A stretch of DNA of 64,000 bases, taken from positions 6,855-70,854 of the IMG/VR virus record IMGVR_UViG_3300003322_000414; one strand, given 5' to 3'. Below the pieces are notes generated by a model. The model was given only the letters and a program-made list of their open reading frames with translations, was not told the origin of the DNA and searched no databases. Source of the DNA: a virus. Shown piece by piece: positions 4,862 to 46,973 of the stretch; within the stretch, counting starts at the first letter, position 1, and every line of letters begins with the position of its first letter. A program made the translations under genes and the position numbers.

Positions 4862-7800
4862 GTGGCAATCCCCGAAGGAGTCGAGACAGTCACGATCAGC
4901 AGCTGCACGCCGCTGACGCTGCCCGACGGAACCCTCATCCGTGGCCACATCAGGTTCGTGGCCCCTGACCTCAACCTGATCGCGGACGAGGACTACATCT
5001 TCGGTGGTGAGTCTGCGGCTGAGCTCTGCCACGGCGAGTTCAGCATCACGCTGGTCCCACCGGACGCCACGGGCATCACGCCCACTGGCTGGACCTACAC
5101 CGCGATCGCCGAGTTCGTCAACGCGCCCGGATGGACGCGATACGTCGACATCACCAAGGACAACCCGACGGTGTGCTTCGACGACGTGATCGTCCTCACT
5201 CCTGGCGACGTCACCAACCCCGACACGACGTTCGTCCGCAAGGCGGGCGACACCATGACCGGAGCGCTCATCCTCTCCGGCGACCCGGTCGCTCCGCTCC
5301 AGGCGGTGACCAAGCAGTATGTGGACAACGCCTTCGACCCGGACCAGTTCGTAGAGATCACCGGCGACACCATGACCGGTCCGCTGGTCCTGTCGGGCGA
5401 TCCCTCGATTGCTCTTGGCGCTTCCACCAAGCAGTACACCGATGCACAGGCCGCAGCTGCACAGTCTGCAGCCGAAGCGACGGCAGCGGCCGAATCGGTC
5501 TCGTTGACCGGCGACACCATGACCGGTCTCCTCGTGCTCAGCGGGGATCCGGTCGCTGCACTCGGAGCGGCTCCCAAGCAGTACGTTGACCAGGCGGAGG
5601 CGGACGCCGTATCGTCCGCTACGGCCATCGCGGCGGCCGAGTCGGTCAGCCTCTCAGGCGACACGATGACAGGCCCGCTCGTTCTGAGCGGAGCCCCGGC
5701 AATCGGCAACGGAGCGGCGACGAAGGATTACGTCGACGCGCAGGCGGCTGCGGCACAGGCTGCGGCCGAGGCAACGGCGGCTGCGGAGAGCGTCTCCATC
5801 TCCGGTGACACGATGACCGGTGCACTGGTTCTGAACGCGGATCCGCTCGTTGCCCTGGGAGCCGCCACGAAGCAGTATGTGGACCAGGCTCAGGCCGACG
5901 CGGAAGCCAACGCCGCTGCCGAATCGGTGTCCATCGCTGGCGACACGATGACTGGACAGCTCGTTCTCTTCGGCGATCCCAACACCGCGCTCGGTGCCGC
6001 TCCCAAGCAGTATGTCGACGCGGGAGACGCGGCCACCCTCGCGGCGGCTGCTGCCGAGTCGGTGAGCCTGTCCGGCGACACCATGACGGGCGAGCTGGTG
6101 CTCTTCGGAGACCCGACCGTTGCCCTCGGAGCCACGCCGAAGCAGTACGTGGACGGCCTGGACTCGGAGAATGTCAAGCTGACCGGAGACCAGACGATCT
6201 CCGGAATCAAGACGTTCACCAGCATCCCGGTCGGACCCGCCTCCGATCCGGTCTCGAACGACCAGCTCACGCGCAAGTTCTACGTGGACGCGCTGGATGC
6301 CCAGAACGTGAAGCTCACTGGTGACCAGACGGTTGCTGGGATCAAGACCTTCTCCTCCATCCCCGTGCTCCCCGGCTCCGACCCGGTCGCCGCCAACGAG
6401 GCGGTCCGCAAGGCGTATGTGGACACGCTCGATGCACAGAACGTCAAGATCACCGGCAACCAGTCAATCGCCGGGCTGAAGACCTTCACGGACGCACTCG
6501 CCATCACGGACGGGTCCGACGTCAATCTGCTGACCGTCACGCAGACCAACGTGGCGGCGACGGCGGGCGTAATGAAGCTCGTGGCCGGTAACGCCGCGCA
6601 GCAGGCTTTCCTCGGCTCTTACCAGGGAGCGGCGGCCAACTCCTGGGCCATCCGGGCGGACGGCCGCTACGAGGCCGGAGACGGCACCGGAGCGCGGGAC
6701 ACGCTGCTGGCTCGCATCGCTGCTGGCGTCTGGCAGGCCACATCTCAGATCCGCGTCACTGGCTCGGCTCCCAGCAACGCGGCCGACCTGACGCGCAAGG
6801 ACTATGTCGACGGTCTCGACGCGCAGAACGTCAAGCTGACTGGCGACCAGTCCATCGGCGGGATCAAGACGTTCACGTCGTCGCCGATCGTGCCCGATCC
6901 GACCACCGATCAGCAGGCTGCCAGCAAGGCATACGTCGACACCGGAGACGACGCCCGCGTCGCTGTCGCCGGAGACACCATGACGGGTGCTCTCGTTCTG
7001 TACGGCGACCCGATGGCTCCGCTGGAGGCGGCCACACAGCAGTACGTGGACCAGCAGGCCGACGCAGCCCAGGCTGCTGCTGAAGCGACCGCAGCTGCAG
7101 AGTCCGTCTCGGTCACTGGCGACACGATGACGGGGCCGCTCGTCCTGTCCGGCGACCCGGCCACGGACCTCGAAGCCGCACCCAAGCAGTACGTGGACAA
7201 CACGATCGATGCGGAGCTGCTCGCACAGCTCGGACTCTCGACCGGCATCCTGCTCGGCGGCGAGCTCAACGTCAACGTTGGCGACGACACGATGGTCGAC
7301 ATCGGAGACACCTACGGCGTCGTCGTCGACTACGTGGACACGCCGACCGCTCCGACCGTGACCAAGGTGACGTTCGCTGCGACGACCGTGACCATCACCA
7401 ACCTGTCCGAGCCGATCACCTGGCTGCTCATCGACGACACGGGCACTCTCTCGCAGCAGACGACTCGGCCGACCAACACTCAGCGCAGGACGCACCTGGT
7501 CCTCGGCGGCGTCCTGGTCGCGGGTGGCGGCATCATCCAGGACCAGAGCCTGCCCAACTACCCGCCTCAGGCCCTGAACCAGCTGTACGACCTGATGGAC
7601 GCGCTCGGTCCGTTCAACGTCACCGGCAACCTGCTCACTCCTGCTGGTGCGAATCTGCAGCTTGCCAAGACTGCTGGCACCGTGTTCAACCGAGGCTTCA
7701 ACCACTTCGCCGGGGCAACGCTGACGCGGGATCCGCACATCTCGTCCACGGCCGCTCAGAACCCGGTCACGATGCGGTATGTGACGCAGGTTCCGGCTGC

Positions 7801-38575: not shown

Positions 38576-39049
38576 TTACTTCTTGGCGGCGGTCCGACGC
38601 GTCCGGCGCACCGGCTGCTTCGGCTTGTCCTCCGCCTTGGGCTCGTCGGCGGCCTCGGTGGCCGTCTCCGCGCCGTTCTCGGCCTCCGCCTCACCCGTGG
38701 GCTCGGCCTCCGCCGTCGGGGCCTCGGCGGGCTCCTCGGGCTTCGGCTCGTCGGCGGCGGTCTCGCCCTTGAGCTTGGCGAGCTCCGCCTCCAGCTTGGC
38801 GAGCTTCCGGGCCTTGGCCTCTTCCGCCTTCTTGGCGGCCGCAGCCTTGCGCTCGGCGAGAGCCTTCTGGTTCTCCTCGGAGGACTGGAAGTCCATCCGC
38901 ATGATGGTAACGAGCTGGACCGTCTTCAGGTCGACGTCGACGCCCGTCTTCTCCTTGAGCCAGTCCGCGAACTGCTTGTGCAGCTCGGTGGGCTCGGCAG
39001 CCGCACGCTCAGCGAAGGTCTTCTTGCTGGGGGTGTTGTTCTCGGCCAT
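38576..39049 (-). CDS. paralog family member 2, flanked by hammerheads 3 and 2
   Basis: PTELHKQFADWLKEKTGVDVDLKTVQLVTIMRMDFQSSEENQ; AUG 39049 after CCAAGGAGG. Confidence 0.8.
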   Translation of the reverse strand: MAENNTPSKKTFAERAAAEPTELHKQFADWLKEKTGVDVDLKTVQLVTIMRMDFQSSEENQKALAERKAAAAKKAEEAKARKLAKLEAELAKLKGETAADEPKPEEPAEAPTAEAEPTGEAEAENGAETATEAADEPKAEDKPKQPVRRTRRTAAKK

Positions 39050-39065
39050 GGTGTTTCCTCCTTGG

Positions 39066-39129
39066 GGACTCATCGGCACCGGCATCCACCGGCGGACGAG
39101 CAGCGCTTCCCAGCGGGCTCGTTTCGTCC
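39066..39129 (-). ncRNA. type II hammerhead ribozyme HH3 (variant core CCGAUGA)
   Basis: RNA: GGAC GAAA CGAGC-(15 nt)-GCUCG UC^ CGCCGGU-GGAU-GCCGGUG CCGAUGA GUCC; cut 39095/39094. Confidence 0.8.
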
Positions 39130-39546
39130 TTGTTTGTTGCGTGCCGGCATCTCCTCCTTGCGGAGTGCGGTTGCCGGCAGACCGGCCGCCCTTTCGACTT
39201 CCTGGCCAGAGGGTGCTCATCGGAGTTTCTCACGTGACCCAGGCTTGAAGAGGACAGCTTCCGTCGCTCGCTAGCAGCTTTCAGTACCGCCCGGCTGTGT
39301 GCGCTTCCGACGCCCGCAGTGGGTGTCGGCTGCCCGTCCTCGGGAAGTCCAGTCGCTTCGCTCGCAACTACCGGTTTTGAGGAGTCCGGCTCCTGTCTAG
39401 AGTCAGCGGCCAGGACCGAAGTCCTGTGCGCGATCGCAGCCGTCTCTCTTGGCTGTCCTGCTCGGGTTCGCGGTCTTCGGGCGGAACCTCGACCCTCGGC
39501 CAGACCGGCCATCCGGGGAGTTCGTTCCTTGCCCTCGTCGCTTCCT
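39130..39546 (-). ncRNA. candidate structured non-coding RNA B (unrecognised), paralog of RNA A
   Basis: Lies between a promoter (39554-39583) and HH3; 59/74 identity with 43338-43411 including a 1-nt indel; no RBS-led ORF. Confidence 0.65.
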
Positions 39547-39553
39547 GAGTAGA

Positions 39554-39583
39554 ACTATGCGCCAGATCCGGGCGGAAGGCAAC
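39554..39583 (-). promoter_or_regulatory. promoter GTTGCC-N18-CATAGT driving RNA B
   Basis: Aligns with the promoter of RNA A (shared AGTTCTAC..AAGCGA start region). Confidence 0.6.
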
Positions 39584-39730
39584 AACCCATCTACCTGGGC
39601 ATTCACCGCGTTTGCGCAGGTAGAAGCATGTGCGAACTTCCCAAAACTTTTTCTGACAATTTTCGAACCCTGAGGCCGGCATGAGTGCGACGCGTATCGG
39701 TGTCATGCCGGCCTCTCAGGGCGAATCGGG

Positions 39731-40129
39731 CTATTCGATCGTGCGGTAGGAGATGTTCAGCTGCTGTGCAGCCTGCTTCCGGATGATGTCCAGGACGAAC
39801 TCGTCGCGGTCCTCGGGCAGGATGGCCAGCCACTGCTGGCGCGGGATCATCAGCCAGCCCTGAGCAGTCGTGGCGGCCGGTCCGAAGCCGATCGTGTACC
39901 GCACCTCGACGGAGTCGAAGATGTCCTGGAGCGGCTCGGCCTGCTTGGGGATCCAGCAGCTCGGGCACTTGGTGACCGGCTTCCAGTCCTGCGCCTCTTC
40001 CAGCGTCATGCGGCGCGGAGGGTGCACCTCGTTGCCGTTGCGCCGTGCTGCCTCCTGTCCAGCCACGATCTGCCGGCATGCAGCCGTCTGGTGGTACGAG
40101 TCGCCTCGCGCCGTTACGTACACGTCCAT
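39731..40129 (-). CDS. hypothetical protein (Cys/His-containing N-terminal domain)
   Basis: AAGGA RBS; YH..AAC..KCPSC. Confidence 0.65.
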   Translation of the reverse strand: MDVYVTARGDSYHQTAACRQIVAGQEAARRNGNEVHPPRRMTLEEAQDWKPVTKCPSCWIPKQAEPLQDIFDSVEVRYTIGFGPAATTAQGWLMIPRQQWLAILPEDRDEFVLDIIRKQAAQQLNISYRTIE

Positions 40130-42727: not shown

Positions 42728-42757
42728 ACTATACTCCATGTGCAGCCGTTTCGCTAC
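42728..42757 (-). promoter_or_regulatory. repeated early promoter GTAGCG-N18-TATAGT
   Basis: Exact motif and spacing, repeated seven times in 42.7-47 kb. Confidence 0.8.
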
Positions 42758-42821
42758 TCTGGAGTGCAACTTGTTTGCCGGCAAGCCGGGGGAGCTGGGG
42801 GCTCCCCCGGTGCCGTCGTGC

Positions 42822-43013
42822 TTACCGCTGGATCTCGTCCGGACCAGGCGTGCCGAGCGGGTTCTCGACCTGGATCAGGTCGCGCCCGTCGGACTCGGTC
42901 GGGAGCGGCCGGTCCACGATCGGACCGGACGCACCGCCCGTGTTGGACTGTCCCTTGGGGCCGGTTCCGTTCGGCGGGTTGCTCGCCTGCGGGGTCCGCT
43001 TGGGCAGTGCCAT
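42822..43013 (-). CDS. small P/G-rich protein below hammerhead 6
   Basis: AUG after CCAAGGAGG. Confidence 0.6.
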   Translation of the reverse strand: MALPKRTPQASNPPNGTGPKGQSNTGGASGPIVDRPLPTESDGRDLIQVENPLGTPGPDEIQR

Positions 43014-43031
43014 GGTGGTTCCTCCTTGGTG

Positions 43032-43102
43032 AGGCTCCTCAGGAGCGCCGTTCAGCGCCCGACCTGCAAGCCGGCATGTGATCCGACCTGCAGGTTTCGC
43101 CT
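43032..43102 (-). ncRNA. type II hammerhead ribozyme HH6
   Basis: RNA: AGGC GAAA CCUGCAGGUCGG-AUCACAUG-CCGGCUUGCAGG UC^ GGGCGCU-GAAC-GGCGCUC CUGAGGA GCCU; stem II covaries (GGAC/GUCC to AGGC/GCCU); cut 43061/43060. Confidence 0.9.
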
Positions 43103-43434
43103 TGATTGTGTTGCGCAGGCGTCGGTGGGACCTACCATCCGCTCCGCCTGCTCGCTCCGCCCTCGCGCCTTGCCAACCTCTCGGATGTTCTCTCGTGGGG
43201 TGGCTGGTTCCGTGTCTCCCTAGCCAGTCCCGCGTCCGTCCCCGAGGAGTTGCGCGCTACTACCTTCGCTGCCGTTTTCTTGTGGAGGGTCGGTGCCCTG
43301 TCTCCGACGCTGCATTTGCTGCTACCGACCTGTCGCCTGGCCGCCTTGCTCGGTGTTCGCGTTCTTCGGGTGGAGCCTCGACCGTCGGCTGGAGTCGCCG
43401 TCCCGGGAGTTTCGCTCGCCGCCCTCTCGCTTAC
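43103..43434 (-). ncRNA. candidate structured non-coding RNA A (unrecognised), paralog of RNA B
   Basis: Lies between promoter 43442-43471 and HH6; no - strand ORF with a start codon; homologous to 39450-39522. Confidence 0.65.
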
Positions 43435-43441
43435 AGGTAGA

Positions 43442-43471
43442 ACTTTACTCCAAGTCGCACACCTCCGCTAC
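43442..43471 (-). promoter_or_regulatory. early promoter GTAGCG-N18-TAAAGT driving RNA A
   Basis: Exact motif match. Confidence 0.8.
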
Positions 43472-43700
43472 CCTCAGCCCACCTGGTCATTCACCGTAAA
43501 CCCTCAGGTAGTTGAGCCGGCAACTTCTTCCAAGATTTTTTCAGAATTCTTAAAGCCTGAGGCCGGCATGAGTCTGGCCCGGCGCGTCGCTACGTGGCCG
43601 TCTGCGGGCCTCTCGCGGGCGAGCGCGCCCAGTTGGGCCGGTCGGGGCTGCGCGCCACGGAGACGACCAGCGAGCCACGCGCACGACCCCAGAACGCAGC

Positions 43701-43733
43701 GGAGCCCCGCTCCCTTGTCAGGGGCGGGGCTCC
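43701..43733. terminator. GC-rich hairpin terminator
   Basis: 13-bp stem just after the 43746 stop. Confidence 0.55.
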
Positions 43734-43745
43734 GGGTTGGGCCGG

Positions 43746-44105
43746 TCAGTCGCGGCAGCGAGCCAGCGCCCGGTAGGCCGCCTGCATCGCCTTGCGCTCG
43801 TAGGCCTCGCGGGTGTTCTGGATGGCGGAGGTGGAGCCGCCGACGTTGCCCTCGATCAGGGCCTCGGCCGCGTCCTCCAGCCACTCCTCGATGGCGCGCA
43901 TGCCGGCACGGTTCCAGCGGGTCTGGAGCTTGGCGGTCAGGTCGGCGTTGGCCTGCGCCTCCAGCAGGTTCTCCAGCGTCCCCGGCAGGACCAGCTCGCC
44001 AGCCGCGAAGGAGGCGGTGATCCGGCTCTGGACGGTCAGCAGGGTCTGCGCGGCGGACTGGGCGATGCGCTCGACGGTGGCGGCGGTACGCTCGGAGTTC
44101 ATCAT
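43746..44105 (-). CDS. early hypothetical protein
   Basis: Own promoter and CCAAGGAGG RBS. Confidence 0.75.
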   Translation of the reverse strand: MMNSERTAATVERIAQSAAQTLLTVQSRITASFAAGELVLPGTLENLLEAQANADLTAKLQTRWNRAGMRAIEEWLEDAAEALIEGNVGGSTSAIQNTREAYERKAMQAAYRALARCRD

Positions 44106-44159
44106 GGTGGCCTCCTTGGGGCCTCGGGGGAGAGCCTTGCGCTCTCCCTTACAGTAAGA

Positions 44160-44189
44160 ACTATACTCCATCTGCAGCGGTTTCGCTAC
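44160..44189 (-). promoter_or_regulatory. early promoter GTAGCG-N18-TATAGT
   Basis: Exact motif match. Confidence 0.8.
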
Positions 44190-44273
44190 TCTGCAGTGAA
44201 GATTTCTTGCAGTCCTTCTACTGCCTCAGGCCCGCACCCCGGTGTGGGATGCGGGCCGGTTGCCGGCAGGTGC

Positions 44274-44633
44274 TCAGCCCTCCAGGGGCAGCGCGGGCGG
44301 CGTGTATCCCGTCCGCTCGATCGCCACGATCAGCATCGCCCGCAGCGCCGGGACGTCGGGCGAGTCCGAGTTGACCACGTCTTCGTACAGCTCACGCGCG
44401 GTCGCCTCCAGGTCGGTCACCAGCTCCATGTTCTCCGGGACCATCGCGTCGTACATGTCGCAGTTGCAGTGCGAGAAGCTGCCGCAGCCGCACCCCGTCG
44501 CCTTGAGCGAGAACAGCTCGCCGGTCTCGTCCTTGATGACCAGCATCGCGACGCCCGCCAGGTCGTAGTTCTCCTGCGTGATGTCCACGTCGCCGAGGAC
44601 CGTGTAACCGGGGATCGTGTAGTCGCTGCTCAT
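44274..44633 (-). CDS. early hypothetical protein (GCGCGSFSHCNC Cys cluster)
   Basis: Own promoter and CCAAGGAGG RBS. Confidence 0.7.
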   Translation of the reverse strand: MSSDYTIPGYTVLGDVDITQENYDLAGVAMLVIKDETGELFSLKATGCGCGSFSHCNCDMYDAMVPENMELVTDLEATARELYEDVVNSDSPDVPALRAMLIVAIERTGYTPPALPLEG

Positions 44634-44671
44634 GGCTGCCTCCTTGGGGCTTCGTTCGGGCTGTTGATAGA

Positions 44672-44701
44672 ACTTTACTCCATCTGCAGTCCGGGCGCTA
44701 C
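44672..44701 (-). promoter_or_regulatory. early promoter GTAGCG-N18-TAAAGT
   Basis: Exact motif; tandem TGCCGGCA pair just upstream (44721-44736). Confidence 0.8.
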
Positions 44702-44785
44702 CCCTTTGTGCAGATTTCTTTGCCGGCATGCCGGCAAGGGCAGAGCCCCGGCTCCGCTGGGGAACCGGGGCTCGCCTGCGTGCGA

Positions 44786-45109
44786 TCAGTGCATCGTGTC
44801 GATCGGGTTGGCCGGGATGATCGCCTTGACGCCCCGGAACTCCCCGGCGTCCACGATCGCGCCGAGCTCCGTCTGGAGCAGCGTTGCCAGCCACGTGGCG
44901 TCGATGTGGTCGGGGACCTCCCAGAAGCCGTCCAGCGCGACCTGCTCCTCGATGGCGGTGAGCAGGTCCTCCCGCATCTCGACCAGCTCGTCGGTGGTCT
45001 TCTCCTTCATCAGGGTCGGCACGACCGGGTTGAGCCGGTTGAGGTCGTACGACAGCACCGACACGACGATCGCGATCTGATGCTTCTCGTGCTCGGCCGA
45101 GTGGACCAT
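44786..45109 (-). CDS. early hypothetical protein
   Basis: CCAAGGAGG RBS; promoter GTTTAC-N18-TATAGT at 45164-45193; hairpin at 44743-44773. Confidence 0.7.
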   Translation of the reverse strand: MVHSAEHEKHQIAIVVSVLSYDLNRLNPVVPTLMKEKTTDELVEMREDLLTAIEEQVALDGFWEVPDHIDATWLATLLQTELGAIVDAGEFRGVKAIIPANPIDTMH

Positions 45110-45275
45110 GGTGCCCTCCTTGGGGGCTTGGGGCCGACCCTCGCGGTCGGCCTTACACTAAGAACTATACCCCATCTGGAGTCTGGAGTAAACCCCTTCT
45201 GGGAAACTTGTTGTATGGCCATCTGCCGAGACGGCCGCCTCCCGGTGGGGGAAGCGGCCGTGGGCGTTGCCTCGG

Positions 45276-46046
45276 TCAGCAGGAGACGCAGACGCGGCGC
45301 TCCTTGACGGTCGGCATGCCGTAGTAGACCGGCTTGGGCGAGCCGTCCTCGTTCTTGTACTCGATCGGCTCCGACACGATCTTGGAGTTGGCGTAGGTCA
45401 CGGCCTTGCGGCAGTCGGAGCAGATGGCCGTCGTGTGGGTCGCCCAGACGCGGTAGTCGACCGGGACCGAGCCCGGCTTGTGCAGCTCCGAGGCGTCCGT
45501 CCCCTGGGTCGCTGCCGGCACGCCGGGGACCTGGACCACGTAGCTGAACCGGGGTGCCCAGGCGGTCGCCTGCTTGTGGTCCACGACCTTGGTGACCACC
45601 ACGTTGCCGGCAGGGATGCAGTAGCCGTGCGGGCGGGCTCCGGGCAGGAAGTACAGCTCGTCGCCGACCTGGTGCTCGGCACCCTCGACGATCTCCGGCT
45701 TGTCCTGGGTCGTGATGACCGGGGTGTCCTCGTACTTGTCCGACAGCTCCTGGTCGGCCAGGCTGTCGTAGGCCTCCGCCTCGGCGGCGATGGCGGCCAG
45801 CGCGGCCTTCTCGCAGGTCTTGCAGACCTTGCGACCGCCGGTGATGCGGGCGGCGTCCAGCGCCTCCTGGAGGCCCTCGAAGGAGGCTCCCTGGGCCAGG
45901 CGGCCACGGGTCAGGACGCCACAGGCGTTCTCGGCGTAGTAGGCCACGACCCCGGTCTCGGCCGAGCGGTCCGTCTCCGGGCCGGTGGTCTTGCAGGCGA
46001 TCCCGGCGATGTGGTTCGTGGCGCGGTTGTAACGGATGCTGAACAC
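45276..46046 (-). CDS. early hypothetical protein with Zn-ribbon motifs
   Basis: GTG after CCAGGAGG; CKTC, CSDC and CVSC motifs. Confidence 0.7.
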   Translation of the reverse strand: MFSIRYNRATNHIAGIACKTTGPETDRSAETGVVAYYAENACGVLTRGRLAQGASFEGLQEALDAARITGGRKVCKTCEKAALAAIAAEAEAYDSLADQELSDKYEDTPVITTQDKPEIVEGAEHQVGDELYFLPGARPHGYCIPAGNVVVTKVVDHKQATAWAPRFSYVVQVPGVPAATQGTDASELHKPGSVPVDYRVWATHTTAICSDCRKAVTYANSKIVSEPIEYKNEDGSPKPVYYGMPTVKERRVCVSC

Positions 46047-46091
46047 GGTTGCCTCCTGGGGGCTTCGGTCGTTCCCTGCCTTACGAGAGTA

Positions 46092-46121
46092 ACTATACTC
46101 CAGATTGGAGGTCGGCGCTAC
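46092..46121 (-). promoter_or_regulatory. early promoter GTAGCG-N18-TATAGT
   Basis: Exact motif match. Confidence 0.8.
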
Positions 46122-46287
46122 CCTCTTCTGAGGATTTGTTGAATCGGATTTGCCGGCATCTGCAGGGGGCTGGAGGGCTGAGCCGCATAGGTTAAAGCCC
46201 AGCGGACCTCCAGATGCCGGCATATGGCCATCTCCACATGCAGAGAGGCCCGCCCTCCGGAGTGGAGAGCGGGCCTCGCCGGGTCGG

Positions 46288-46560
46288 TCAGATCTCGCCG
46301 TCGAACTCGACCAGGTGGGCGTAGTCCAGGTCCATCGCGTCGGGGTCGGCGTCCAGGACCTCGATCATCTTGTAGCCGACCGGGTTGACGTCGTCCATCG
46401 CGGCCCAGTAGGCGTAGGCCTCGGACTCGCCGGGGAAGTGCTCGATGACCTCGTGCCACTGGCCACGGATCCGGCCGGTCGCCTCGACCGTGCCCTCGAT
46501 CTCCTGGGTCGCGCGGATCCGGGCGATCAGCGCCTCGTTGGTGTTCTCGGCGTCGAACAT
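46288..46560 (-). CDS. early hypothetical acidic protein
   Basis: CCAAGGAGG RBS; hairpin at 46245-46277 after the stop. Confidence 0.7.
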   Translation of the reverse strand: MFDAENTNEALIARIRATQEIEGTVEATGRIRGQWHEVIEHFPGESEAYAYWAAMDDVNPVGYKMIEVLDADPDAMDLDYAHLVEFDGEI

Positions 46561-46598
46561 CTTGGCCTCCTTGGGGCTCTCACTTGCTGACAGTAGTA

Positions 46599-46628
46599 AC
46601 TATACCCTACGCGGGGTGGAGGCGCTAC
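46599..46628 (-). promoter_or_regulatory. early promoter GTAGCG-N18-TATAGT
   Basis: Exact motif match. Confidence 0.8.
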
Positions 46629-46650
46629 CCTCCACCCCGGTTGGATTTGA

Positions 46651-46902
46651 CTACTTGGCGTCGGGCTGGAAGGTCTCGCCGATCCAGTAGCCGGTGCCCA
46701 CCGCGCCCCACAGCACCGTCTGGTAGCCCTTGCCCTTCATCTCCGTGGAGAGCTTGGCCAGGGACTCGGCGTTGTTCCGGACCTTGCGGACCTCCAGCAC
46801 CTGGCGGTCCTCGCCGTAGCCGGTCTTGAAGGCGGCGGTCGCCCAGCCGTTGCGGCCGACGCGGTACTCGATGCGGATCTTGGGGAGCTGGTTCTCGGTC
46901 AT
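46651..46902 (-). CDS. early hypothetical protein
   Basis: CCAAGGAGG RBS. Confidence 0.7.
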   Translation of the reverse strand: MTENQLPKIRIEYRVGRNGWATAAFKTGYGEDRQVLEVRKVRNNAESLAKLSTEMKGKGYQTVLWGAVGTGYWIGETFQPDAK

Positions 46903-46943
46903 TCGGGTTGCCTCCTTGGGGCGTTCTCTCGCTTACAGTAAGA

Positions 46944-46973
46944 ACTATACTCCATTCTGCAGGTCCGCGCTAC
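46944..46973 (-). promoter_or_regulatory. early promoter GTAGCG-N18-TATAGT
   Basis: Exact motif match. Confidence 0.8.

Follow-up and report, generated by a model that had tools for sequence, protein, structure and literature searches.

A putative structured, non-coding RNA between a phage promoter and a hammerhead ribozyme in Streptomyces phages of cluster BN

The subject of this study is RNA B, a folded RNA predicted on the minus strand of a 64,000-nucleotide (nt) stretch of viral DNA (positions 6,855 to 70,854 of record IMGVR_UViG_3300003322_000414, here called the window), which comprises most of a 74.5-kb viral record and in which the genes around RNA B also lie on the minus strand. Comparative analysis indicates that the cluster-BN Streptomyces phages have in RNA B a genuine gene for a structured, non-coding RNA, one of two paralogues per genome, the other being termed RNA A. 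It is conserved, to judge from its alignments, as a set of helices, which form a hairpin domain at the 5' end, an H-type pseudoknot, two long-range pairings and a hairpin whose loop does not vary. The unit is preceded by a promoter that both paralogues share in kind and is followed by a type II hammerhead ribozyme fused to the ribosome-binding site (RBS) of the next gene.

Nine Streptomyces phages in GenBank are closely related to the window: phiRKBJ001, ShakeNBake, PHTowN, Lizz, Dryad, Gibson, Rooney, Wentworth and Yara. They are lytic siphoviruses of cluster BN, a group whose genomes are ~82-84% identical overall and so differ by ~17% (PMC8852317). In all nine curated genomes both loci are unannotated gaps, of ~700 nt at the B locus (~510 nt in Yara, L006 5993-6508) and of 560-860 nt at the A locus.

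Two diverged copies of one RNA family

The preliminary description of the window had set positions 39450-39522 against 43338-43411 on the minus strand, and recomputation returned the identical alignment, with 59 of 74 columns matching and one gap. Its score of 101 compares with 29 +/- 6 for 2000 shuffles, the highest of which reached 56, and a blastn match between the two loci (39686-39450 against 43573-43338, 70% identity over 244 columns, E 2e-18) takes in the promoter region together with ~95 nt at the 5' end of each RNA. The similarity had further been followed through the start region, a claim that stands only in part: AGTTCTAC..AAGCGA is shared by A and B but is not specific to the RNAs, the promoter and start motif being present in other cassettes as well. 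Homology between the copies peaks near the promoter, and AAGCGA with what lies upstream of it is promoter-family sequence. The islands of similarity farther downstream are real and coincide with parts of the fold. AGACAGG..AAAAC is the H-type pseudoknot module; ACU.C.CG.GGACGG supplies the 5' strand for a covarying long-range helix and, after it, a conserved GGACGG; and CGCAACA..CAAGG, just before each ribozyme, is a CA-rich spacer running into hammerhead stem II. As had been proposed, each RNA ends in a type II hammerhead (Table 1).

The covariance model R1, which represents the first 135 nt (the 5' domain, made up of P1-P2, a linker and P3), scores RNA A at 141.5 bits and RNA B at 138.5 bits and has no other match in the window or the whole 74.5-kb genome. 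Its 49 copies fall in 32 sources, namely the window and 31 loci from GenBank, IMG/VR and metagenomes (cited below by phage name or L number). Degenerate pattern scans of metagenome and genome collections gave mostly chance matches in GC-rich DNA, and the 31 loci are those that proved true after filtering with nhmmer and covariance models. Each genome sampled over both loci has two RNAs, and a CA-rich spacer, hammerhead and RBS follow, 214-440 nt on, in 43/43 units with enough downstream sequence. The covariance-model matches, together with an order of elements common to A and B (promoter, 5' domain, pseudoknot, long-range helix with GGACGG, CA-rich spacer, hammerhead, RBS), uphold the view that the two are diverged copies of one RNA family.

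The copies have not stayed in place. An A-type 5' domain sits at the B locus in Yara and L123, B-type outer helix strands enclose an A-type inner hairpin in L097, the pseudoknot of L045 combines a stem 1 of one type with a stem 2 of another, and the gene downstream of the A-locus RNA differs in Dryad, L011, L014 and L123. Such mosaics indicate that the RNA types recombine between loci.

The A locus of Yara (L006 2058-2500) holds a third RNA type, whose promoter class and pseudoknot are the same but whose 5' domain is unrelated; it has an A-like GGGAGACACGGAACC block, and a hammerhead comes after it. A 1525-nt sequence binned as an Acidobacteriota metagenome-assembled genome (L202, DATIPO010000416.1) contains the A/B 5' domain at 106.6 bits and is probably a mis-binned fragment of a BN-like phage. 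In Arthrobacter phage Wollypog and Microbacterium phage Krampus, which have homologues of the gene after RNA B, a gap of ~125 nt holds no such RNA, and a protein-guided scan of viral contigs returned close relatives only. The A/B sequence family is a new one, confined to one phage cluster and its metagenomic relatives.

A folded RNA without a conserved reading frame

Two features could be taken to mean that 39095-39546 encodes a protein or small peptides: an open reading frame (ORF) of 167 amino acids (aa) that begins with ATG is open in the window (39009-39512, minus strand), and a Shine-Dalgarno (SD)-like AAGGAGGAG adjoins an AUG at 39150. Coding is nevertheless exceedingly improbable. The spread of GC content among codon positions is at most 0.16 over 39750-39100 and 43850-43050, against 0.5-0.6 in every neighbouring gene, and since GC bias at the third codon position (GC3) is visible from either strand, the flat profile excludes genes on both strands. 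Among 21 B-locus sequences the longest open frame (70-175 aa) changes frame, and their alignments contain many indels of 1, 2, 4 and 5 nt, which are not multiples of three. The AUG at 39150 comes only 2 nt after its SD-like motif, inside helix P8, and the lengths of the spacers that follow it break frame between phages. The 167-aa ORF overlaps the start of the real gene out of frame. It had earlier been set aside as spurious, and rightly so, for it shows no GC3 periodicity, is open in some homologues only, and has no SD motif at working distance before its ATG at 39512. Long chance ORFs are likely in U-poor, GC-rich sequence of this kind, RNA B having 11% U and 58% purine, with G above C.

The elements of the fold are listed in Table 1, and most of them vary in sequence while keeping their pairing. 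In the window the helices of P1-P2 are GGGC/GCCC, GGAAC/GUUCC, CUC/GAG, CCC/GGG and UGGCC/GGCCG around the loop GGUCU, and L014 and L123 have AGCG/CGCU and GGAAGC/GCUUCC instead; one P1b pair is GC in 20 cases and AU in 12, and the P2 pair at columns 31-74 is GC in 19 and CG in 14. The short hairpin that had been singled out for keeping its pairing despite a change of sequence does so (GGCC-ggucu-GGCC in B, GGC-gacucca-GCC in A). The linker that follows is, together with the hammerhead, the most nearly identical segment of the locus. Variants of P3 read CGGCC/GGUCG in the A type and GGGCC/GGUCC in L045, and P4 is swapped wholesale for other hairpins in Dryad and Wentworth.

The pseudoknot is the sole module found in every RNA type, including the A-locus RNA of Yara. 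Its stem 1 occurs as AGGG/CCCU, UGGG/CCCA, AGGAG/CUCCU and AGGA/UCCU, its stem 2 as CCG/CGG, CCA/UGG, CCGG/CCGG and CGGG/CCCG, and in RNA B its third loop is A-rich. One position of the long-range helix P5 is GU in six cases, CG in six and UA in four, and the homologous helix of RNA A (AACUCCUCGG / CCGAGAGGUU, then GGACGG) likewise changes by compensatory pairs. Each stem haplotype of P6 forms 7-8 of 9 pairs. The outer helix of P7 is GCUG/CGGC in the window and phiRKBJ001 and UCCA/UGGA in the others, and the inner helix of P8 is found as CCUCA/UGAGG, CAUCC/GGAUG and CUCC/GGAG. The CA-rich spacer before the hammerhead, exemplified by ACACAACACAAACAACACAAACAACACAAA in L023 and L029, is presumably unstructured.

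Support for this structure comes from comparison of the aligned sequences with the same sequences after the pairing partners had been slid by 1-3 columns. For the 5' domain (33 distinct sequences), 87.7% of helix cells are standard pairs, as against 25-52% when slid; six pairs are changed on both sides, as against 0-2, and covariation is 0.12, as against at most 0.035. None of 500 shuffles attains the observed values. For the B body (18 distinct sequences, scored with a custom script) the corresponding figures are 88.9% against 26-45%, 12 pairs against 1-3, and 0.13 against at most 0.044. In these alignments as a whole, many of the changes are shared by descent or were moved by recombination. 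Helices of the 5' domain and the B body, and stem 2 of the pseudoknot, are thus kept by compensatory changes, in agreement with the earlier suggestion that the family is under structural selection. In 40-nt windows across seven phages, the 5' domain (39520-39440) and the hammerhead with its RBS reach 0.97-0.99 mean pairwise identity, which makes them the most conserved parts of the locus and places them above most of the downstream gene.

Two products of automated folding were set aside. RNAalifold applied to the whole B alignment paired the pseudoknot region with stem I of the hammerhead, a pairing that shows no covariation and has no counterpart in A; applied to a mixed A/B alignment, it misplaced P1 through alignment shifts, and the hand-set structure was used instead.

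Table 1. Coordinates of RNA B, its elements and the adjoining features in the window
Feature	Position	Strand	Remarks
RNA B, 452-nt non-coding transcript, inferred start to hammerhead cleavage site	39095..39546	-	no codon periodicity, no conserved ORF
5' domain, irregular hairpin P1-P2	39479..39534	-	covariation
Near-invariant unpaired linker GAAGACCGCGAACCCGAGCAGGA	39456..39478	-	97-99% column identity across phages
P3 hairpin CAGCC-AAGAGAGAC-GGCUG, purine-rich loop	39437..39455	-	variants keep pairing
P4 variable hairpin CAGGAC-UUCG-GUCCUG, closed by GCG/CGC	39411..39426	-	closing pair CG in 13, AU in 5
H-type pseudoknot AGAC-AGGAG-CCGG-A-CUCCU-CAAAA-CCGG	39371..39398	-	stems 1 and 2 covary independently, 17 haplotypes
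P5 long-range helix ACUUCCCG / CGGGCGGU	39286..39348	-	encloses conserved AGGACGG and hairpin P6
P6 hairpin, hypervariable stem, invariant loop CCACUGCGG	39329-39307	-	at least 7 stem haplotypes
Invariant stretch CUGAAAGCUGCUAGCGAGC	39266..39284	-	identical in all B-type sequences
P7 domain: outer helix GCUGUCCUCUUC / GAAAGGGCGGC, inner CCUGG/CCAGG, variable tip	39185..39258	-	
P8 hairpin, two TGCCGGCA palindromes, varying inner helix	39142..39179	-	
CA-rich spacer	39130..39141	-	length varies, 12-40 nt in relatives
Type II hammerhead	39065..39129	-	GGAC, GAAA, stem III, GUC cut after C39095, stem I, CCGAUGA, GUCC
Promoter GTTGCC-N18-CATAGT (equivalently TTGCCT-17-CATAGT)	39554..39583	-	aligns with recurrent phage promoter motif
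Inverted repeat CTACCTG-N19-CAGGTAG, candidate operator	39591..39623	-	directly upstream of -35; kept in alignments
Inverted repeat, 13 bp, GAGGCCGGCATGA ... TCATGCCGGCCTC	39672..39715	-	read from sequence
Downstream gene with RBS	38576..39063	-	RBS AAGGAGG 39063-39057, ATG 39049, 157 aa, PHROG 20596
Paralogue RNA A, 374 nt	43061..43434	-	hammerhead 43102-43031 and RBS; 5' domain 43432-43298

Promoter, ribozyme and gene setting

The promoter call for RNA B rests on motif recurrence, a generic sigma-70 scan not calling a promoter at 39554..39583. The phage motif GTAGCG-N18-TAWAGT has 7 exact copies in the window where none is expected. These seven copies lie within 42728-46973 on the minus strand, each followed by CUGUAAG at the start region and by an RBS within 25-45 nt. 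From the spacing, transcription of RNA B is inferred to start at about A39546. In seven GenBank relatives (L001-L007) the GTTGCC class of promoter occurs exactly twice per 12.8-kb locus, both times at the RNAs, and the other cassettes carry promoters of the GTAGCG class. This restriction implies that the RNAs have a promoter class of their own, and probably a dedicated regulator.

A candidate operator accompanies the class. A repeat of the form CTACCWGG-N10-20-CCWGGTAG stands ~40 nt before the GTTGCC promoter of the A-locus RNA in 7/7 of these relatives and of the B-locus RNA in 3/7, and the pattern CTAYCWGG..CCWGGTAG is found nowhere else in their 12.8-kb loci; the window has one copy at each RNA (that of A at 43480-43515). 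The relatives also have the repeats GGTGAATCGCC and CCCGATTCGCCC upstream, further candidate operators. In the other cassettes, where only 25-45 nt separate start site and RBS, the first ~13 nt (CUGUAAGCGAGAG) and the last ~15 nt (GAGUCCCCAAGGAGG) are common with A and B; with both ends of the leader shared in this way, A and B give the impression of long inserts in an otherwise standard short leader.

The palindrome TGCCGGCA occurs 47 times in the window against 1.95 expected, a ~24-fold excess (examples at 39142, 39172, 42776, 44721/44729 and 47494/47526), often 20-40 nt upstream of the -35 element of an early promoter or paired ~30 nt apart, and probably serves as a site to which a phage regulator binds or else as a hairpin-forming terminator. 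Two of these palindromes fall within B, and operator-like repeats flank the promoters, so that selection might be thought to act on the DNA (as a protein-binding array, replication origin or packaging signal) and not on RNA. This is very improbable: compensatory variation links distant positions, the pseudoknot included, with G-U pairs on the transcribed strand; iterons and AT-rich tracts are absent; and the promoter and ribozyme that delimit the unit share the strand of every gene around it.

The hammerhead of RNA B has three stems around a junction, of which I and III end in loops and II is open, and is immediately followed by AAGGAGG and the ATG at 39049; it is one of six type II hammerheads on this strand, each of them fused to an RBS. 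Its cmscan alignment to Rfam Hammerhead_II (RF02276) covers model positions 1-66 and scores 23.9 bits, below the gathering threshold of 37, with E 0.29 when 10 kb were searched and 0.015 when 501 bases were. The core CCGAUGA departs from the conserved CUGANGA in having C for U at position 4 (here called C4), as it does in most relatives; Dryad and L029 have CCGAAGA, and L010, L011, L014, L023 and Yara have CUGAGGA. The GAAA core, with its A15.1-U16.1 pair and an NUH cleavage triplet, is present (CGAAAC ... GUC in the window, the triplet at 39097-39095, and GUA in the canonical-core allele). The B hammerheads fall into two linked alleles, one combining GUC, the stem I loop UGGAU and CCGAUGA, the other GUA, the loop UAAGAG and CUGAGGA. 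Stem III is found as GAGC/GCUC, GACC/GGUC, AACC/GGUU and GGUC/GGCC, and because compensatory changes of this stem occur within the C4 allele, the hammerhead fold is still under selection; stem I varies among the A copies. A further hammerhead-like pattern match in the 5' domain of A (43417-43358) was rejected, B having GAAC there instead of GAAA and stem III failing to form.

On the 5' side, the 13-bp inverted repeat at 39672..39715 lies directly 3' of the stop codon of the upstream gene (TAG 39733-39731) and resembles the hairpin of a terminator; the arm on its right, CACTCATGCCGGCCT, is common to locus A and kept in relatives. A mosaic boundary falls at ~39750, the upstream gene of the window (39731-40129) not being homologous to that of the relatives; unlike this gene, the RNA B locus is conserved between window and GenBank relatives from the promoter region onward. 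On the 3' side, the N-terminal ~60 aa of the PHROG 20596 gene (38576-39049) have homologues in Arthrobacter and Microbacterium phages (L017, L018), where its neighbours, a DNA helicase on one side and a RecB-like exonuclease on the other, suggest that it acts in replication or recombination. The gene after RNA A (42822-43013 in the window) encodes in most phages a Gly/Pro-rich protein of 61-67 aa with a conserved C-terminal motif, for which Pfam and PHROG gave no match; Dryad, L011, L014 and L123 have other small ORFs in its place.

Possible function and relation to known systems

In the proposed sequence of events, host RNA polymerase would start near 39546 and the hammerhead would cut the transcript after C39095. 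One product, an RNA of 452 nt, would carry a 5' triphosphate and terminate in a 2',3'-cyclic phosphate that stem III caps; the other would be an mRNA that begins with the stem I hairpin and has its RBS exposed. RNA B would then bind a protein of the host or the phage, the contacts being made by those of its loops and single-stranded segments that are invariant (GAAGACCGCGAAC, CCACUGCGG and CUGAAAGCUGCUAGCGAGC), and the hammerhead would be doubly useful, in freeing RNA B and in shielding translation of the next gene from a folded leader. That the released RNA is a stable early phage RNA acting in trans is the explanation given most weight here, at a little under even confidence. It is favoured because the ribozyme separates the fate of RNA B from that of the mRNA, because RNA types exchange between loci and downstream genes, because the RNAs have a dedicated promoter class, and because several invariant unpaired segments look like recognition sites. 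It is possible, and held more tentatively, that A and B found a new class of phage RNA genes, which would be multi-domain RNAs with operator-controlled promoters, released by hammerheads and acting early in trans, for example as decoys or scaffolds. In a more radical variant the folded body would be an aptamer that tunes the adjacent non-canonical C4 hammerhead, and this, if true, would be the first natural allosteric hammerhead.

A number of observations weigh against a conserved, released and trans-acting RNA. The structure was set by hand and tested on the same sequences it came from, and these are of low diversity (mean 92% identity), so that independent compensatory events are few. The minimum free energy of single sequences is not exceptional relative to shuffles (z -0.48 for B, +0.22 for its antisense and +0.17 for A), and column shuffling of the RNAalifold energy gives z -2.4 for the sense and -1.5 for the antisense strand, a modest value at the level of the alignment; thermodynamics alone is weak, and the comparative evidence is clearer. 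Conservation of P8 may act on DNA, given the genome-wide excess of TGCCGGCA. The C4 core and the sub-threshold Rfam score mean that release may be slow or partial. No complementary site for the invariant loops was found in the phage, nor any binding partner or target, and the A-B duplex signal is no higher than the shuffle level. Relatives from RNA libraries (root metatranscriptomes) are contigs that evenly cover the whole early region and may be DNA; they show neither the ends nor the strand of RNA B.

If the body had no function, RNA B would be a tolerated spacer or an old insertion into a short leader, neutralised by the hammerhead-RBS unit. The unexceptional folding energy is what such a body would show, its length ranges over 214-440 nt, and the leader ends shared with the 25-45-nt leaders give A and B the look of inserts. 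An inert spacer is improbable all the same, for phages with ~17% difference between their genomes still have 5' domains that are 97-99% identical, the helices are kept by compensatory changes, two copies are retained in every genome sampled, and a promoter class is dedicated to them.

The main rival to trans action, ranked below it and judged rather unlikely, is a cis-acting leader that would work by antitermination of the put/nut kind, by attenuation at the P8 hairpin, or by sensing a ligand or protein, the hammerhead merely trimming the transcript. The RNAs putL and putR of HK022 and nutL and nutR of lambda measure 30-75 nt, depend for their action on staying tethered to the polymerase, and have no ribozyme after them. 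The likeness is that here too two paralogous structured elements stand right after two similarly built early promoters, and only a few nucleotides separate the conserved domain from the start site. A GC-rich hairpin without a U tract precedes the CA-rich spacer in every RNA type and could be an attenuator, a composition with G above C and little U would suit an untranslated leader that escapes Rho and RNase E, and many folds that bind ligands are H-type pseudoknots with A-rich loops. Against a cis-acting leader, the intervening self-cleaving ribozyme would be expected to sever the tether that put/nut RNAs need, the additional 250-350 nt of conserved structure exceeds the size of such elements, Rfam riboswitch and leader models give no match, and RNA types swap loci and downstream genes, which makes gene-specific control unlikely.

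Searches for a known counterpart were negative. At gathering thresholds Rfam 15 has no match in the 64-kb window, and with the isolated RNAs at E up to 10 the body is unmatched, riboswitch and leader models included, only the hammerhead and chance matches being returned. ARAGORN found no transfer RNA or transfer-messenger RNA. A mimic of a clustered regularly interspaced short palindromic repeat (CRISPR), a toxin-antitoxin RNA and a retron RNA were considered and dropped, there being no repeats, no conserved repeat-like stem and no reverse transcriptase. In a literature search, no description was found of a folded RNA that runs from promoter to hammerhead and has its own promoter class.

Partial likenesses can nonetheless be drawn. 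The pRNA of phi29 has a role in the packaging motor and an end defined by a terminator. It resembles RNA B as a structured non-coding RNA of a lytic phage with an early promoter and with the trans action proposed for RNA B, which would belong to a phage machine or to the interaction of phage and host, but shares no homology with it, and the 3' end of RNA B would be set by a ribozyme. GOLLD, ROOL and other orphan RNAs of Rfam 15 are likewise several hundred nt long, multi-domain, pseudoknotted and phage-borne; RNA B differs in giving no cmscan match to them even at E up to 10 and in its confinement to one phage cluster with metagenomic relatives. In the engineered insulator RiboJ a hammerhead before an RBS removes upstream RNA context from the mRNA, whereas the arrangement at RNA B is natural and the context removed is itself a conserved RNA.

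The nearest published parallel is in the clustered hammerheads of prophages and phages, which flank genes and were proposed to cut long transcripts into gene-length pieces; three tandem arrangements were tested and cleaved during in vitro transcription, one of them also in vivo (Perreault et al. 2011, PMC3088659). There, as here, several type II hammerheads lie on one strand between transcription units. The differences are that at RNA B the upstream piece is a conserved 452-nt folded RNA with its own promoter and not a gene, that the ribozyme is fused to an RBS, and that the core is C4; the paper describes no such RNA, and it lists other tolerated core variants, C4 not being described in the text consulted (PMC3088659). 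The hammerhead layout is of a known kind, and the RNA sequence family is new.

The finding accounts for two gaps of 700-800 bp left blank in the annotations of nine curated phages. The family is narrow, comprising one phage cluster and relatives from soil and root metagenomes, which limits its general reach; the related phages Gibson, Wentworth and ShakeNBake are culturable and easily engineered (on S. griseus or S. viridochromogenes). What bacterial and phage hammerheads are for has been an open question since the 2011 catalogue, and here one appears in a clear structural role, with a single nucleotide marking both where a conserved, folded, promoter-driven RNA ends (3') and where an mRNA begins (5'). 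This raises the question of whether phages use ribozymes to release functional non-coding RNAs, and that of what role a 450-nt early pseudoknot RNA may have during infection of Streptomyces.

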